Part shown: positions 23,252 through 38,182 of the stretch, one piece after another | How positions within the stretch are numbered: the first letter of the stretch is position 1 | Layout: every line of letters starts with the position of its first letter | Assembly (NCBI GenBank): GCA_963664875.1 | Contig: OY761611.1 | Coordinates: 2,880,001 to 2,944,000 of the forward strand | From: Candidatus Kapaibacterium sp. | GTDB lineage: Bacteria; Bacteroidota; Ignavibacteria; Kapaibacteriales; UBA2268 | Reading direction: 5' to 3' | Length of the DNA stretch: 64,000 bases | The notes under the pieces: generated by a model | Told to the model about the DNA's origin: nothing | The model's database searches: none | The model's input: the letters and a program-made list of their open reading frames with translations, nothing else | Position numbers and translations under genes: made by a program

Positions 23252-23266
23252 TGGCACTTATTTTGA
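23252..23266 (+). promoter_or_regulatory. Candidate sigma54 promoter of the flagellar operon
   Basis: TGGCAC-TTATT-TTGA against TGGCAC-N5-TTGC, ~40 nt upstream of flgB. Confidence 0.6.
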
Positions 23267-23305
23267 AGTAGTGCTTTAAGCAGATAATACGTAAAGGTGG
23301 AAAAA

Positions 23306-31510: not shown

Positions 31511-32746
31511 ATGCAAATCTTCCCTGTAAATAATGCCGGAAACCAAATCTCTACAAATGCGGAAAAGCGATATGCCGAAGAGGCAGCTATGGCTTTGGCG
31601 AGTATGGGTAACCTGTTTAGCGATGTGCTGAATAATATTCAGGCAGATAAGTCAGCAAACCAAAATAAATCTGATGCTAATTATAGCCAAAATGTTAAAG
31701 AAGATAACTCTTCGCAAAGAAAAGCAAACAACGGAGAGGTGGAGAATAACATCAAATCGGCTGATAATAGCCCAAAAAAATCAGAGACTACAGACAATAA
31801 ATCTGAAGAAAGTAAAAATTCCACATCCACTGAAAAAAAATCTGAAGATACAAAAATGTCTAAATCTGACAGCATATCTTCCGTTAAGGCAGACTCTAAT
31901 CAATCTAAACAAACCACTTCCGTAAGCGTTAAGTCTGAGCTCCCTCAAACAGGCACACAGACGGGCGAACAGACAAGCTTACAAGAGCAGATGGATTTTG
32001 TCAAAAAATTTGAAAATGCCAATATAAAAGTGTCTGTCAAATCAGAAGCAGTTGCCGTTGAACCGAGCATAAAAGATATTCAAAATATGTTTATGGCTAA
32101 TAGTAGTGCGGCGAATATTGAAAATATGTCTGATAATCTACTAAAAAATGCAGGCATAAAAGAATTATTTGACGGCAAATCATTCGAGCAGATAAAAGAA
32201 ATACTAAATAATTCGGGTTCCGGCTTTTCTGATATGTCCGGTTTTAATTTCGAGTTCAACGGACAAAAAATATTGGACAGAGCTAATAACCTGAAATTTG
32301 AGAAAGTTATAAGAACACAGATAAAAGATTTTGCTGCAAAGCTAACCTCTGTGGTCAAAAATGTTCCTAATTCTACAAATGCCACAGCCAAGATGGTACT
32401 TCGTCCCGAATCGCTTGGCACTGTATTTGTAGATATTAACTCAACTGAGGGGGTAGTTAAATTGAAAATCAAGGCTCAGTCACAGGAAGTGATTGACAAG
32501 TTAGAAGCCCAAATAGCAGAGCTCAGGCAAAAACTTGAAAAGTCCGGCTTAGTCGCCGAACACATTGAGTTTGCTCTCTACGAGGAAGGAGAAAATGCTT
32601 TTAACAGCTTTGCATTTTCAAAAGAAAAACAGGACGAAATGGAAGCACGAAAAGATTTCGTGCGCTCTTTTACCGGATTAGCTTCTGATTCTACTCAGGA
32701 TGAGCCTACAATCAGCAGTAAAAATGGTATAGAGCAGTACATTTAA
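31511..32746 (+). CDS. fliK: Flagellar hook-length control protein FliK
   Basis: Low-complexity N-terminus, LRPESLGTV T3S4 motif; precedes flgD. Confidence 0.88.
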   Translation: MQIFPVNNAGNQISTNAEKRYAEEAAMALASMGNLFSDVLNNIQADKSANQNKSDANYSQNVKEDNSSQRKANNGEVENNIKSADNSPKKSETTDNKSEESKNSTSTEKKSEDTKMSKSDSISSVKADSNQSKQTTSVSVKSELPQTGTQTGEQTSLQEQMDFVKKFENANIKVSVKSEAVAVEPSIKDIQNMFMANSSAANIENMSDNLLKNAGIKELFDGKSFEQIKEILNNSGSGFSDMSGFNFEFNGQKILDRANNLKFEKVIRTQIKDFAAKLTSVVKNVPNSTNATAKMVLRPESLGTVFVDINSTEGVVKLKIKAQSQEVIDKLEAQIAELRQKLEKSGLVAEHIEFALYEEGENAFNSFAFSKEKQDEMEARKDFVRSFTGLASDSTQDEPTISSKNGIEQYI

Positions 32747-32769
32747 CCCTTTCAACATGGAGGTTGCAA

Positions 32770-33885: not shown

Positions 33886-33988
33886 CGAGCAGGACTTTGC
33901 CTTTGTCTCAGAGAATAAGGGCGAGATGCTCGAAAAGCCTTGACCGACTGATAGGCTTTTTCGGTTGAAAATCAACAAGGAGGTTGAT
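33886..33988 (+). promoter_or_regulatory. Structured RNA leader of flgE
   Basis: Two long hairpins (GGA bulge; loop TGACCGACTGAT) plus an SD-in-loop hairpin. Confidence 0.6.
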
Positions 33989-35311
33989 ATGGGCTTAATA
34001 AGATCGCTTTCGATTGGAGCGAGTTCCTTAAAAACCCATCAAAAAGGATTTGACGTTATTTCAAATAACTTAGCCAATGCTAATACAGTAGCTTATAAAT
34101 CAAACTCTGCTAACTTTGCAGAGGAATTCAATCAGGTTTATAGCTATGGAAGAGGCCCGGGAGACACCGGCACTTCCGCTGCAGGAGGTACTAATCCTTT
34201 GCAGTATGGGCTTGGAGTTAAGTTGAGCTCAATCCAACAGAATATGACGCAGGGAGTTATCGAATCTACCAACAGACCATTAGATATGGCTTTGCAGGGT
34301 GGAGGCTTTTTTGTGTATAATCTTGGTGGTACAGATTATTATTCTCGTGCCGGAGCCATTTCGCAGGACAAACTTGGTAATCTTGTGGATAGTGGCACAG
34401 GTGCATTCTTGCAGGGATATAATGTATCCTATGATGCTAACGGACGAATCAATAAAACTTCTGACGGTGCTAATATCCTTGACGCAACCGTCTCTAATTT
34501 GACAATTTCGCCCGATGTGGTCTCTGCTCCTAAACAGACAGAAAATATTGCATTGAAAGGTAATTTGAATTCTGAAGCAGACGAAGGAAATGTTCGTACT
34601 ACCAGTATTGATATACTCGATAATAACGGCGGTTCGCACACAGTAACACTTTCGTTTACAAAAAGTGCTACTGCCAATCAGTACGATGTTGCCGCTAAAG
34701 TTGACGGAAACGATATATCATTAGATGCTACAAACATTACTTTCAATCCTGACGGTTCGATAAGTACACCTTTAGAATTGAATATGACAGCTGCTGATTT
34801 GAATACTGCAGTTGGATCTGATGTATTTGATACAGGCACTCCAAAAAATGTAACTATTACACTTGCAAATTCAAATAACCTGTTGCAGGGACTAACCAAT
34901 TTTGCACAGGCAGATTCTGCAACAGCGACCTCGCAGGACGGTTACAAACCCGGATCATTACTTTCCCTTTCTGTTCAGCCTGATGGTAGAATAGTGGGTA
35001 GTTTTTCGAATGGGCAGGCAGAAGTCTTGGGGCAGGTGGTAGTCGCAAAATTTACCAATGAAGATGGTTTAGTCCGATCAGGTAACAATTTCTTTGTGCC
35101 TTCTCCAAATAGTGGATTGCCAGTGATCGGTACGGCTACAGAAACATTTGCTTCTACGATGGTTGCTGGACAGTCATTGGAACAATCAAATGTAGATATG
35201 ACAGAAGAATTTACTGATATGATATCGACTCAAAGAGCTTTTGAAGCTGCTTCGCGAACAATTTCCGTAAGCGATCAGCTACTTCAGGAAATAAATCAGC
35301 TTAAAAGATAA
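33989..35311 (+). CDS. flgE: Flagellar hook protein FlgE
   Basis: ISNNLANANTVAYK, DMALQGGGFF, SRAG, LEQSNVD, QRAFEAASR. Confidence 0.95.
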   Translation: MGLIRSLSIGASSLKTHQKGFDVISNNLANANTVAYKSNSANFAEEFNQVYSYGRGPGDTGTSAAGGTNPLQYGLGVKLSSIQQNMTQGVIESTNRPLDMALQGGGFFVYNLGGTDYYSRAGAISQDKLGNLVDSGTGAFLQGYNVSYDANGRINKTSDGANILDATVSNLTISPDVVSAPKQTENIALKGNLNSEADEGNVRTTSIDILDNNGGSHTVTLSFTKSATANQYDVAAKVDGNDISLDATNITFNPDGSISTPLELNMTAADLNTAVGSDVFDTGTPKNVTITLANSNNLLQGLTNFAQADSATATSQDGYKPGSLLSLSVQPDGRIVGSFSNGQAEVLGQVVVAKFTNEDGLVRSGNNFFVPSPNSGLPVIGTATETFASTMVAGQSLEQSNVDMTEEFTDMISTQRAFEAASRTISVSDQLLQEINQLKR

Positions 35312-35315
35312 TAGC

Positions 35316-35342
35316 TAATGTTTTAGCAAATTAAGTCGATAA
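35316..35342 (+). promoter_or_regulatory. Candidate sigma28 (FliA) promoter
   Basis: TAAT-N15-GTCGATAA against consensus TAAA-N15-GCCGATAA, 5 nt after the flgE stop. Confidence 0.55.
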
Positions 35343-35348
35343 TAATAA

Positions 35349-35447
35349 AAAGTGTCAATCATCGAGGCAGATGACAAGACAATCAGGGAAATATATCCCT
35401 GATCCTCCATAATTCGGGTGGTTGCAATATACTACCCGTTTTTTTTT
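35349..35447 (+). ncRNA. Candidate ~100-nt sRNA with exposed anti-SD seed; its 3' hairpin also terminates the flagellar operon
   Basis: Hairpins tcatc/gatga and atcaggga/tccctgat, single-stranded CCTCCATAATT, terminator cgggtggt/actacccg plus T9. Confidence 0.55.
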
Positions 35448-35650
35448 GCTTTCAGTCTGAAAGAGCCCTGAAATAGCACCCTTTCCTGCTCCTGAATATC
35501 TATCTCCCAAAAAAAACAATAGCAATCCTGTTCGTCAATATTCTCAGTATTTTCTAAGTCTGATCTTTTCAATTTCCATTGCTTATGTTCATATATAGTG
35601 GTAAATTAGGAGATTGGAATTAAACTAATTATCAAAACGGAATATTGAAA

Positions 35651-38182
35651 ATGACATCTAAAGAGATAAGACAATCCTTCCTTGACTTTTTTAAAGGCAA
35701 AGAGCATGCTATAGTGCCGTCTGCGCCTGTAGTGCCTCACGGCGACCCTACTTTGCTTTTTACTAATGCAGGTATGAACCAGTTCAAAGATGTATTTCTT
35801 GGACAGGGAAAAAGAGATTTTAACCGTGCTGCTGATACTCAAAAATGTATCCGTGTGAGCGGTAAACATAATGATCTTGAAGAAGTTGGTGTTGACACTT
35901 ACCACCATACTTTCTTTGAAATGCTTGGTAACTGGAGCTTTGGTGATTATTATAAAGAAGAAGCTATTGCTTGGGCTTGGGAACTTCTCACAGGAGTTTG
36001 GAAACTGCCTGCTGACAGACTTTACGCAACAGTTTTCGAATCAGATGATGAAGCTTTGGAAATCTGGAAAAAATATCTTCCTGAAAATCAAATCCAACGC
36101 CATGGCGCTAAAGATAACTTCTGGGAAATGGGCGAAACAGGTCCGTGCGGCCCTTGCTCTGAAGTACACTATGACAGAACAAAAGACAAATCAGGTGCAA
36201 AACTTGTAAATATGGATAGCCCTGAAGTTATAGAAATATGGAACCTTGTATTTATCCAATACAACAGAAAAGCTGACGGTTCTCTTGAAAATCTTGCTAA
36301 CACTCACGTTGATACAGGTATGGGATTTGAAAGAATCTGTGCAGTGCTTCAAGGTAAAAACTCAAACTACGACACAGATGTATTTATGCCGATTTTGAGA
36401 AAAATTGAAGAGTTGAGTGGCAAGGCTTATAGTACTGAATTGACTGACAAAACCGGTATTGCAATGCGTGTTATCGCTGACCACGTTCGTACACTTAGCT
36501 TTGCAATTGCCGATGGCGCTATGCCGGGCAATGAAGGCAGATCTTATGTCCTTCGCAGAATTTTGCGTCGTGGTTGCCGCTTTGCTAGAAATCTCGGTTT
36601 CAGAGAAGCTATGATGTACAAACTTGTTCCTACTTTAATTGAAGTAATGGGCGAGCAATTCCCTGAAATAGTTAAACAGCAGACAACAATCGAAAAAATC
36701 ATCAAAGGCGAAGAGGAATCATTCCTTCAGACTCTTGATAGAGGGATCGAAAAATTTGAAGAGATGACAAAAGACCTAAAAGATAATACTATCGCAGGTG
36801 CAGATGCATTTATGCTTTATGATACTTTTGGTTTTCCTCTTGACCTGACTGAGCTAATGGCTCGCGAAGCAGGCTATAAAGTTGACATCGAAGGCTTCAA
36901 TGCAAACATGAAAGAGCAAAAAGAACGCTCTCGTGCAGCTCGCAAAGTTACTTCTCAGGAAGCAGAAATACCTGAAGTAAATGAAAAATCAGAGTTTATT
37001 GGTTATCATACTTTAGAAGCCGAAGCAAAAATTCTTTGGGCAGATGATAATAAAGTAGTTCTTGACAAAACTCCATTTTATGCAGAAAGCGGTGGTCAAG
37101 TGTCAGATCATGGCACGCTTACAATAGCTGCTAATAAATATGATGTTATCGACGTTAGAAAAGTGGGTGATGCTATTATTCATATCTGCGACCGCGAAGT
37201 AGAGCAGCTTATCGGCGGTTCAGCTCTTGCAAAAGTAGATGAAAAACGCAGACAAGCTATCAAACGAAACCACTCTGCAACTCACCTCTTGCACGAAGCG
37301 CTTCGCACTGTTCTCGGTAATCACGTGCAGCAGGCAGGTTCACTTGTAGCTCCTGATTATCTACGTTTCGACTTTAACCACTTTGAAAAAGTAACAGATG
37401 AGCAAATCGAGCAAATCGAAAGGCTTGCAAACGAAAAAATACTGGAAGCTCATTCAGTAGATATTGAAGAAAAATCTATCGAAGATGCTCAGAAAAACGA
37501 TAAAATCAAAATGTTCTTCGGAGACAAGTACGGCTCAACAGTTCGAGTAATTACTATGGATCCTAGCTATTCTATGGAGCTGTGTGGTGGTACTCACGTT
37601 AGTAACACAGCAGAAATCGGTTTGGTAAAAATTACATCTGAGTCTTCTATTGCTGCCGGCGTTCGTCGTTTGGAAGCAGTAACAGGCAAAGGTGTGGAAG
37701 AATATATCCATAATCAAAATGCTAAGCTAAAAGAAAAAGACGTTACTATTGCGGAATTGCATCACAAAATCAAGCAAATGGAAAAAGAAATGTCTGAGCT
37801 AAAAGTGCAGGGCATGGCTTCGCTTGTTCCTGATATGATAGCTGCGGCTGAGCTTGTGGGCGAAATCAGAGTAGTAGCCAAAGAAGTAGAAGCAGAAGAT
37901 ATGGATCAGCTCCGCGACCTTGGCGAGGAGCTTAGAAACGGTTTCGGCAAACAGGGTATCGGTCTTCTTGCTCGCATAGATGAAGATAAAGTGCAGCTCG
38001 TGTGCGTTGCTACTGATGACTTAGTCAAATCGCATCCTGCAGGCAAATTAGTCGGAGCTGCTGCAAAAGCACTTGGCGGCGGCGGAGGTGGTAAACCTCA
38101 CATGGCTACAGCAGGCGGCAGAGATGTATCAAAATTGCCTGAATTACTATCAAACTTTGCCGCAATGGTAAAAGATATGTAG
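35651..38182 (+). CDS. alaS: Alanine--tRNA ligase
   Basis: LLFTNAGMNQFK, HHTFFEMLGN, GPCGPCSE, DTGMGFER, NHSATHLL, ELCGGTH, GGGGG. Confidence 0.99.
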   Translation: MTSKEIRQSFLDFFKGKEHAIVPSAPVVPHGDPTLLFTNAGMNQFKDVFLGQGKRDFNRAADTQKCIRVSGKHNDLEEVGVDTYHHTFFEMLGNWSFGDYYKEEAIAWAWELLTGVWKLPADRLYATVFESDDEALEIWKKYLPENQIQRHGAKDNFWEMGETGPCGPCSEVHYDRTKDKSGAKLVNMDSPEVIEIWNLVFIQYNRKADGSLENLANTHVDTGMGFERICAVLQGKNSNYDTDVFMPILRKIEELSGKAYSTELTDKTGIAMRVIADHVRTLSFAIADGAMPGNEGRSYVLRRILRRGCRFARNLGFREAMMYKLVPTLIEVMGEQFPEIVKQQTTIEKIIKGEEESFLQTLDRGIEKFEEMTKDLKDNTIAGADAFMLYDTFGFPLDLTELMAREAGYKVDIEGFNANMKEQKERSRAARKVTSQEAEIPEVNEKSEFIGYHTLEAEAKILWADDNKVVLDKTPFYAESGGQVSDHGTLTIAANKYDVIDVRKVGDAIIHICDREVEQLIGGSALAKVDEKRRQAIKRNHSATHLLHEALRTVLGNHVQQAGSLVAPDYLRFDFNHFEKVTDEQIEQIERLANEKILEAHSVDIEEKSIEDAQKNDKIKMFFGDKYGSTVRVITMDPSYSMELCGGTHVSNTAEIGLVKITSESSIAAGVRRLEAVTGKGVEEYIHNQNAKLKEKDVTIAELHHKIKQMEKEMSELKVQGMASLVPDMIAAAELVGEIRVVAKEVEAEDMDQLRDLGEELRNGFGKQGIGLLARIDEDKVQLVCVATDDLVKSHPAGKLVGAAAKALGGGGGGKPHMATAGGRDVSKLPELLSNFAAMVKDM

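Follow-up and report, generated by a model that had tools for sequence, protein, structure and literature searches.

This work concerns a stretch of 136 bases lying immediately behind flgE, the gene for the flagellar hook protein, in a 64,000-nucleotide piece of the genome of Candidatus Kapaibacterium sp. (contig OY761611.1, positions 2,880,001 to 2,944,000, forward strand). This piece is referred to here as the window, and positions are given in its coordinates unless marked as genome positions. The source genome is closed, spans 3.83 Mb and contains 36% G+C. The 136 bases very probably hold a functional and conserved RNA element that did not arise by chance. The best overall explanation, advanced tentatively and at somewhat less than an even chance, is a genus-restricted structured small RNA (sRNA) with a promoter of the FliA (sigma28) type, which would act by pairing with Shine-Dalgarno (SD) sequences. 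The element is best classed as a new RNA family, of a kind that is known and with a combination of features that is new, and the main rival to this explanation is a cis-acting or processed 3' untranslated region (UTR) of flgE.

According to the preferred explanation, the 136 bases would encode a structured non-coding RNA of about 100 nt, ending at the terminator of flgE, that could be made by two routes: as the 3' end of the flgE mRNA and, most likely also, as a separate sRNA transcribed from a FliA-type promoter located 5 nt past the flgE stop. Hairpins 1 and 2 would keep the invariant C-rich sequence CCUCCAUA single-stranded before the terminator, where it would pair with SD regions and block ribosome binding without the assistance of Hfq. 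The best candidate targets would be ribosome sites that display AUGGAGG in a hairpin loop, those of flgD, flgG and a flagellin whose promoter is sigma54-like, and FliA activity would in this way damp the translation of flagellar mRNAs of an earlier class. The parts of the element are the following, with invariant columns counted in an alignment of five species:

33989 to 35311, forward strand: flgE, last gene of the fliI-fliJ-fliK-flgD-TIGR02530-flgE block, recognized by NCBIfam FlgE and TIGR03506.
35316 to 35323, forward strand: -35-like box TAATGTTT, 7/8 to TAAAGTTT, 7/9 columns invariant.
35324 to 35334, forward strand: promoter spacer of free sequence, 11 nt (12 nt in two species), 2/11 columns invariant.
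35335 to 35342, forward strand: -10-like box GTCGATAA, 7/8 to GCCGATAA, with GTCGAT invariant (6/6 columns).
35349 to 35447, forward strand: predicted RNA of about 99 nt, also flgE 3' UTR and terminator, supported by folds, conservation footprint and covariance model.
35353 to 35381, forward strand: hairpin 1, with outer UGUC/GACA and inner UCAUC/GAUGA pairs and loop GAGGCA, predicted in the folds of 5/5 species.
35382 to 35403, forward strand: hairpin 2, AUCAGGG(A) with (U)CCCUGAU (35382-89 pairing with 35396-403), 17/22 columns invariant.
35404 to 35414, forward strand: unpaired linker CCUCCAUAAUU (DNA CCTCCATAATT), whose core CCUCCAUA (35404-35411), invariant at 8/8 positions, is the candidate anti-SD seed.
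35415 to 35447, forward strand: intrinsic terminator from the terminator scan, a stem-loop (35415-35438, 16/24 columns invariant) followed by T9 (35439-35447).

The site at 35415-35447 was the only terminator-like site found by scanning positions 34900 to 35900. Because no terminator lies between flgE (stop TAA at 35309-35311) and the element, the flgE mRNA runs into it, and the element is in any case part of the flgE 3' UTR. The terminator shared by flgE and the element, together with the boxes at 35316-35342, gives the layout of a 3'-UTR-embedded sRNA of the MicL, DapZ or UhpU type.

The two hairpins, the linker and the terminator had been described in a first-pass annotation of this DNA, made from the letters alone, and all four were recovered in place. 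The predicted RNA folds with -33.2 kcal/mol (z = -5.2, with 0/200 shuffles as good) and retains a z of -4.1 when the terminator is left out, and all five orthologues share the same predicted architecture (z from -3.9 to -6.1). In hairpin 1, whose inner stem joins 35359-63 to 35370-74, 14 of the 16 columns over 35359-35374 are invariant and one U-A pair becomes U-G in two species. Hairpin 2 keeps seven pairs in 5/5 species, with one A-U to G-U change, while the terminator stem carries one compensatory change and several wobble changes. At the predicted helices, 97.3% of the alignment cells are paired in the five sequences; 16 of the 22 pairs are constant, five change on one side (four of them in a wobble-compatible manner) and one, in the terminator, changes on both. 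CCUCCAU is unpaired in 5/5 minimum-energy folds, and the final A of the core is paired in one species (G001). The early claim that the region contains no open reading frame (ORF) holds only as far as conserved frames are concerned, given that a 13-codon ATG frame exists at 35371-35412 and is not conserved. A small conserved peptide was thus rejected as the product of the element, since a 1-base indel breaks the frame in all four relatives and its ATG is GTG in two. A permissive Rfam scan of positions 34800 to 36000 gave only sub-threshold chance matches, the best scoring 26.5 bits against a gathering score of 85.6.

The comparison was based on a set of five Candidatus Kapaibacterium-like genomes, namely the query and its four closest relatives, which are metagenome-assembled genomes deposited as Candidatus Kapaibacterium sp., Chlorobiota bacterium or "uncultured bacterium". 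When 60 relatives were searched by blastn, the first 136 nt after the flgE stop were matched in 4/4 genomes of the same genus, at 83-86% identity, and the element was absent from the 56 other relatives. Conservation along the alignment is uneven. Beyond the boxes and hairpins listed above, it reaches 10/10 columns in the 5' tail AAAGTGTCAA and 8/8 in CCTCCATA, and falls to 2/6 in the discriminator and to 6/106 in the 100 nt past the T-run. As a neutral yardstick in the same species, 23 of the 174 four-fold degenerate sites of flgE are invariant; these sites are mostly variable and the element is mostly invariant, and therefore the latter is under strong purifying selection. Judging by the alignment, a pair of short boxes on either side of a freely varying spacer, after which conservation sets in again, traces the footprint of a promoter that leads into a functional transcript. 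The conserved columns begin anew at 35349, 7 nt past the -10-like box, where a FliA-dependent start would be expected at 5-9 nt, and from this and the position of the boxes we infer an RNA start near 35349.

The element is linked to flgE in 5/5 genomes of this genus, and the gene downstream differs. The next gene in the query is alaS, which starts at 35651, and the leader of this alaS has matches elsewhere in 4/4 relatives. A leader or attenuator of the downstream gene was thus ruled out, as that gene differs between species. A covariance model built from the five sequences scored 116-124 bits in the five genomes of the genus when 130 family genomes were searched, and gave only weak matches (E 0.004-0.9), in 22 of the other 125; none of the 23 weak loci outside the genus is at flgE. 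With filters off, the same model found only weak, terminator-type matches at 26 flgE loci of other genera (best 23.5 bits, no CCUCC), where flgE is usually followed by a short spacer and a terminator. An exact-pattern scan of a genome collection returned the same four genomes and no further homologue, and, of two scans of a metagenome collection, the first yielded 0 matches and the second 6, all due to chance (no flgE, unrelated flanks). The boxes and the CCTCC linker, whose persistence in relatives had been proposed as a check, are kept in 5/5 genomes, in one genus only.

A separate observation concerns the 26 flgE loci of other genera. In four of them (L067, L078, L079 and L084), a CCUCC-type run (CUCCCUCCC or CCUCCCUCCCC) directly precedes the terminator, inside the 100 nt examined past the flgE stop and in fact no more than 30 nt from it. 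These runs have no promoter-like boxes, and only 2 occurrences were counted in the next 230 nt of the 26 loci. In L078, L079 and L084, the C-rich run follows a small hairpin, a build like that of hairpin 2, linker and terminator in the query. Such C-rich flgE 3' ends may represent a promoter-less version of the element.

Regarding the promoter, the FliA consensus is TAAAGTTT-N11-GCCGATAA, with a spacing of 11 (+/-1) nt. The TAAT box that had been noticed just behind flgE does occupy 35316-35319, its first base being the fifth after the stop, and GTCGATAA follows at 35335-35342. Read as 8-mers, the boxes TAATGTTT-N11-GTCGATAA agree with the consensus at 14/16 positions, and the spacer measures 11 nt in three species and 12 nt in two. 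The sigma factor itself, on whose presence the early proposal depended, was found (fliA, 205.6 bits against a cut-off of 189.6). The genome was scanned for TAAAGTTT-N10-12-GCCGATAA with at least 14/16 matches, using eight 1-kb-block shuffles as the control. This gave 11 sites, compared with 2-7 (mean about 3) in the shuffles, and 6 of the 11 are intergenic, namely that downstream of flgE, one before a flagellin gene, two ahead of the gene for a 1533-aa protein, one ahead of an 81-aa ORF and a perfect one at genome 72392. A flagellin gene is preceded, 66 nt upstream, by TAAAGTTG-N11-GCCGATAA (15/16, as read in the query genome), and motB-fliW-csrA by TAATCTTT-N11-GCCGATAT (13/16). The promoters of motB and of an 81-aa ORF were aligned across species and are conserved in 5/5. 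The -35 box of motB is TAAT or TAAG, so that the deviation of the candidate at position 4 recurs at a conserved promoter; likewise, the -10 box of the 81-aa ORF is GTCGATAA, GCCGATAA or GTCGATAC at orthologous positions, where the -10 deviation of the candidate recurs. Because fliA is present, sites are in excess in the genome and the deviations recur at conserved promoters, a FliA-type promoter is the best reading of the boxes, and the candidate is predicted, on this basis, probably to have one of its own. The 81-aa ORF (genome 2403860, forward strand; locus L010:1425-1670) is conserved and has no family match.

The same evidence bears on the notion that the region does no more than serve as 3' UTR and terminator of flgE, that it lacks its own promoter and that its hairpins protect the 3' end of the mRNA. 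CCUCC would then pair with SDs in cis on a flgD-TIGR02530-flgE transcript, tuning its translation or decay, and the boxes would be RNA-level sites for an RNase or a protein. The missing terminator between flgE and the element fits this notion, as do the CCUCC-type stretches in 4/26 loci of other genera, which leave no room for a promoter. The best complement, that in flgD, may be on the same mRNA if a sigma54-like box inside fliK, described below, is its promoter, and the icaR 3' UTR of Staphylococcus aureus provides a precedent in the excerpted report (PMC3868564). Further support comes from public sequencing runs, of which two metatranscriptome runs contain small shares of the stretch searched and five of unrecorded type contain most of it; they were examined as assembled contigs, which carry no starts, ends, strand or level, and their uncovered parts are uninformative. 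One metatranscriptome contig of 249 nt spans 35139-35387, bridging flgE and the element, and differs from the window at five positions, all in the flgE coding sequence; if it is derived from RNA, it represents read-through from flgE. In contrast, the conservation is shaped like a promoter (spaced boxes, free spacer, restart at the transcript start) and not like one RNA site, the boxes conform to this genome's FliA-type promoters, tolerated variants included, and the complement to the SD of flgE itself amounts to only 5 bp. Considering both sides, a 3' UTR devoid of its own promoter was judged rather unlikely. As an aside, in run X7, which bears the same organism label, the contigs of the element break at 35400-35404, with differing sequence on either side and a 5-base overlap, which could reflect strain variation, inserted DNA or a branch of the assembly within the element.

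The proposed action of the RNA involves its linker. CCTCCAT is, as had been pointed out, the exact complement of ATGGAGG at the flgD ribosome site (32757-32763), and both flgE and the TIGR02530 gene carry GGAGG, where the match is the generic GGAGG only (5 bp for flgE). The flgD start is ATG 32770, while the raw ORF list had given TTG 32764. Targets were ranked by duplex energy alone, pairing a 15-nt linker with positions -30 to +15 of 2956 crude gene starts, from home-made gene calls in which starts were chosen with a preference for SDs. A bias toward flagellar genes was observed: GGAGG-type SDs occur in 7/35 flagellar genes versus 149/2921 others, and ATGGAGG at the SD position in 17/2956 genes. 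Four of these 17 are flagellar, namely flgD, flgG, flaG and a flagellin (genome 2273935-2274870), and the other 13 are non-flagellar or without a Pfam match. This gives 4/38 known flagellar genes versus 13/2918 others (Fisher p = 5e-5, or 9e-4 without flgD), a result tempered by the tests having been post hoc, on crude SD-favouring gene calls and with an incomplete flagellar list. The ATGGAGG sites of flgD, flgG and the flagellin are invariant in 5/5 species, and so is a 23-nt intergenic stretch at flgD. The proposal of flgD as the target is only partly supported: the 7-mer is real, invariant and enriched at flagellar ribosome sites, and the specificity for flgD is weak. With respect to a partner protein, the hfq model TIGR02383 had no match at E <= 0.1 in this 100%-complete genome, and the same model found hfq in 5/14 control genomes, 4 of them above the cut-off. 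A role of the element as a base-pairing anti-SD regulator falls just short of an even chance, and it is doubtful that flgD, flgG or the flagellin are its true targets. Putative action on hook, rod and flagellin mRNAs by this means is plausible.

A second feature of the candidate targets is a small hairpin of 4-5 bp, with the pattern xxxC-A(A/U)GGAG-Gxxx, whose loop contains the SD in flgD, flgG, flgE and the flagellin:

32753 to 32766, forward strand: flgD ribosome site, mini-hairpin CAAC-AUGGAG-GUUG, with AUGGAGG at 32757-32763 and a 7-nt seed complement.
33973 to 33986, forward strand: flgE ribosome site, mini-hairpin CAAC-AAGGAG-GUUG, with a seed complement of 5 nt only.
Genome 1095838: flgG ribosome site, hairpin GUUAC-AUGGAG-GUAAC.
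Genome 2274883: flagellin ribosome site, hairpin UCAC-AUGGAG-GUGA.

Only six such SD hairpins exist in the genome; four are those listed and the fifth is located between flgN and flgK (genome 1091248). Three genomes from two other genera retain the flgD hairpin, its arms having changed, and that of flgE takes the form AACC-A[AU]GGAG-GGUU in other genera, with compensatory arms. Genes csrA and fliW are present, next to motB, and the SD hairpins could serve as CsrA-type sites, as docking sites for an sRNA, or as both. This raises the alternative that the RNA binds a protein or acts as a decoy, for instance as a CsrA sponge, instead of regulating by base pairing. Besides the two genes, this reading is favoured by the invariance of the hairpin 1 loop (AGGCA) and of the 5' tail, neither of which has an evident part in pairing. 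However, no loop GGA is conserved in the five-species alignment, the sole GGA being at the edge of the hairpin 2 stem and replaced by GGGC in 2/5. Known CsrA sponges have repeated binding sites, unlike this single short RNA, and the alternative was deemed very improbable.

The first-pass annotation had also proposed that a late-class sRNA shuts down hook genes driven by sigma54, for which the following boxes are relevant:

23252 to 23267 of the window: sigma54-like box before flgB.
32415 to 32431, forward strand: sigma54-like box TTGGCACTGTATTTGTA within fliK, some 340 nt ahead of flgD, one mismatch to TGGCAC-N5-TTGCW.
Genome 2274984, reverse strand: conserved sigma54-like box before the hairpin-bearing flagellin.

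The box in fliK is included in a 29-nt run invariant in 5/5 species and, from its sequence, is a possible promoter of flgD-TIGR02530-flgE. The genome contains rpoN, the flagellin with a sigma28-type promoter has no SD hairpin, and the division between sigma54-like and sigma28 promoters fits a FliA-driven RNA that damps mRNAs of an earlier class, without proving it. The proposal thus gains from rpoN and from the boxes before flgB and flgD, and loses its purely late character, because the flgE mRNA itself carries the seed and the timing need not be strictly late. As a separate point, the sigma54-like boxes of this genome (TGGCAC/T-N5-TTGA/TA, 16 in all) have a -12 element TTGA or TTGT instead of TTGC.

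A number of findings weigh against the preferred explanation. Starting with the element, conservation is confined to one genus and to five closely related sequences, and covariation is not significant, as 154 of 500 shuffles reach the observed score with only these five. In the boxes, position 4 of the -35 element is T or G and in none of the five species A, and the tail of the -10 box varies among them (AA, TA, AT, GT). The 249-nt contig extends from flgE across the boxes and takes in 39 nt at the start of the predicted RNA, as plain read-through would. As for the targets, the seed pairing at flgD comprises only 7 bp (about -11 kcal/mol). Among the 2956 gene starts flgD ranks 140, the TIGR02530 gene 144 and flgE 377, and the top 20 predicted targets are a mixed set (flhB, a methyl-accepting chemotaxis protein fragment, type IX secretion system proteins, DsrC, Nuo subunits). 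Because of this rank and of the functional mixture of the best 20, flgD is not singled out. In addition, the ATGGAGG site of flaG is not conserved, the presence of a flagellin among the candidates blurs the logic of a late RNA repressing hook genes, and the AUGGAGG hairpins have a possible independent reason to exist as CsrA-type sites, csrA and fliW being present.

The comparison with known systems relies on excerpts of the cited reports. In position and build, the element comes closest to CJnc230 (FlmE) of Campylobacter jejuni, which is described as an RNA of 88-98 nt downstream of flgE, co-transcribed with it and made mainly through processing by RNase III and RNase Y. It has an additional weak RpoD-type promoter after the flgE coding sequence, and the ribosome sites that it binds are those of flgM and Cj1387c (PMC11187230). 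Like CJnc230, the Kapaibacterium element has about 100 nt, lies directly behind flgE and on its transcript, and possesses a predicted promoter and a single-stranded region suited to ribosome sites. In contrast to what the excerpt reports, the promoter is of the FliA type here and of the RpoD type there, the phylum is different, and the FlgM candidate lacks complementarity whereas flgM is a target in C. jejuni. No Rfam family exceeded its threshold over the element, a result that concerns neither the Rfam status of CJnc230 itself nor a direct alignment of the two RNAs.

These likenesses make it conceivable that the element is a processed 3'-UTR sRNA cut from the flgE mRNA, hence middle-class, with other targets such as the mRNA of an anti-sigma factor, promoting late genes and using the promoter only to a minor extent. 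The position, size, single-stranded ribosome-binding-site region, flgE co-transcription and weak own promoter would all be as in the excerpted description of CJnc230 (PMC11187230), and the bridging contig fits co-transcription. Nevertheless, the ribosome site of the FlgM candidate pairs with the linker at only -3.4 kcal/mol (rank 2566/2956, almost no complementarity), no Rfam match exists, and the clear constraint on the promoter boxes would not be explained by a negligible promoter. This candidate, of 84 aa (genome 2820587-2820841) and distinct from the 81-aa ORF mentioned above, was accepted on its sequence, with a weak PF04316 match (E = 0.29); TIGR03824 found no FlgM in the genome. On balance, a processed RNA of the CJnc230 type was regarded as improbable.

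[quoted passage not shown] For UhpU, a separate sigma28 promoter is located within the upstream coding sequence and the 3' end is shared with that gene, FliX and FlgO are 3' UTRs of flagellar genes, and MotR and FliX pair within coding sequences (PMC10578931). The element resembles this set in the predicted FliA control overlaying the flagellar hierarchy and in a UhpU-like arrangement of promoter and 3' end; it differs in that no hfq was found here, none of the four, as excerpted, is behind flgE, and they have no sequence relation to it. In the Firmicutes, the excerpts describe Rsa RNAs whose conserved C-rich motif pairs with G-rich SDs without Hfq (PMC2790875), and an anti-SD motif in the 3' UTR of S. 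aureus icaR (PMC3868564). An unpaired C-rich stretch and a proposed Hfq-independent action are shared with these RNAs, and the 3'-UTR position with icaR, while here the motif is CCUCCAU, placed in a linker and not in a loop, in a flagellar context and another lineage, and known from sequence alone. The earlier statement that no such sRNA is known to have been described in the Fibrobacteres-Chlorobi-Bacteroidetes (FCB) group agrees with full-text searches on flagella in Kapabacteria and on flagellar small RNAs in Ignavibacteria, which returned no paper on such an RNA, as judged by titles and the beginnings of abstracts.

What is understood to date about sRNA control of the flagellar hierarchy comes from E. 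coli and Campylobacter. If the preferred explanation is true, the element would have arisen independently at the same place, behind flgE, in a scarcely studied and largely uncultured Bacteroidota/Chlorobiota lineage without hfq found, differing by its promoter class (FliA) and its anti-SD seed. Together with the hairpin sites of flgD, flgE, flgG and the flagellin, it would provide a small testable circuit, with one RNA, a 7-nt seed and three or four leaders. Should the promoter be inactive, the outcome would be a more ordinary one, a conserved flgE 3' UTR. Pursued to its limit, the model would have a FliA-driven, Hfq-independent sRNA closing a late-to-middle negative loop through the AUGGAGG hairpins and abolishing translation of the middle class after hook completion. 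Competition with CsrA for these hairpins might occur, and the C-rich 3' UTRs of the sister genera would be its promoter-less ancestral form. We consider this extended version unlikely.

Finally, some features of the surroundings and of the genome deserve mention. Over 28.8-35.3 kb, the gene order is fliI, fliJ, a gene for an MgtE_N-domain protein, fliK, flgD, the TIGR02530-family gene and flgE, the last starting with ATG at 33989. Between the last two, a hairpin AAAAGCCU...AGGCUUUUU is found at 33905-33955 of the window, with its 3' arm kept in the four relatives, and could act in attenuation or processing or stabilise flgE as a 5' structure. Elsewhere, two FliA-type boxes (14/16 and 15/16) at genome 3011766 and 3011991, forward strand, precede a gene (locus L008:1794-6395) for a 1533-aa protein with only weak fn3-like matches and no confident family, which may be a late-class surface protein. 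A perfect TAAAGTTT-N11-GCCGATAA occurs at genome 72392-72600, forward strand (locus L007:1393-1620), in the intergenic region between two minus-strand genes, with 27/27 bases, spacer included, invariant in 5/5 species. About 80 conserved bases without a long ORF follow, up to a terminator-like hairpin, and this region contains a frame of 11-13 codons, possibly leaderless, which is open in all five species and has ...CKDKY(K) as its end.

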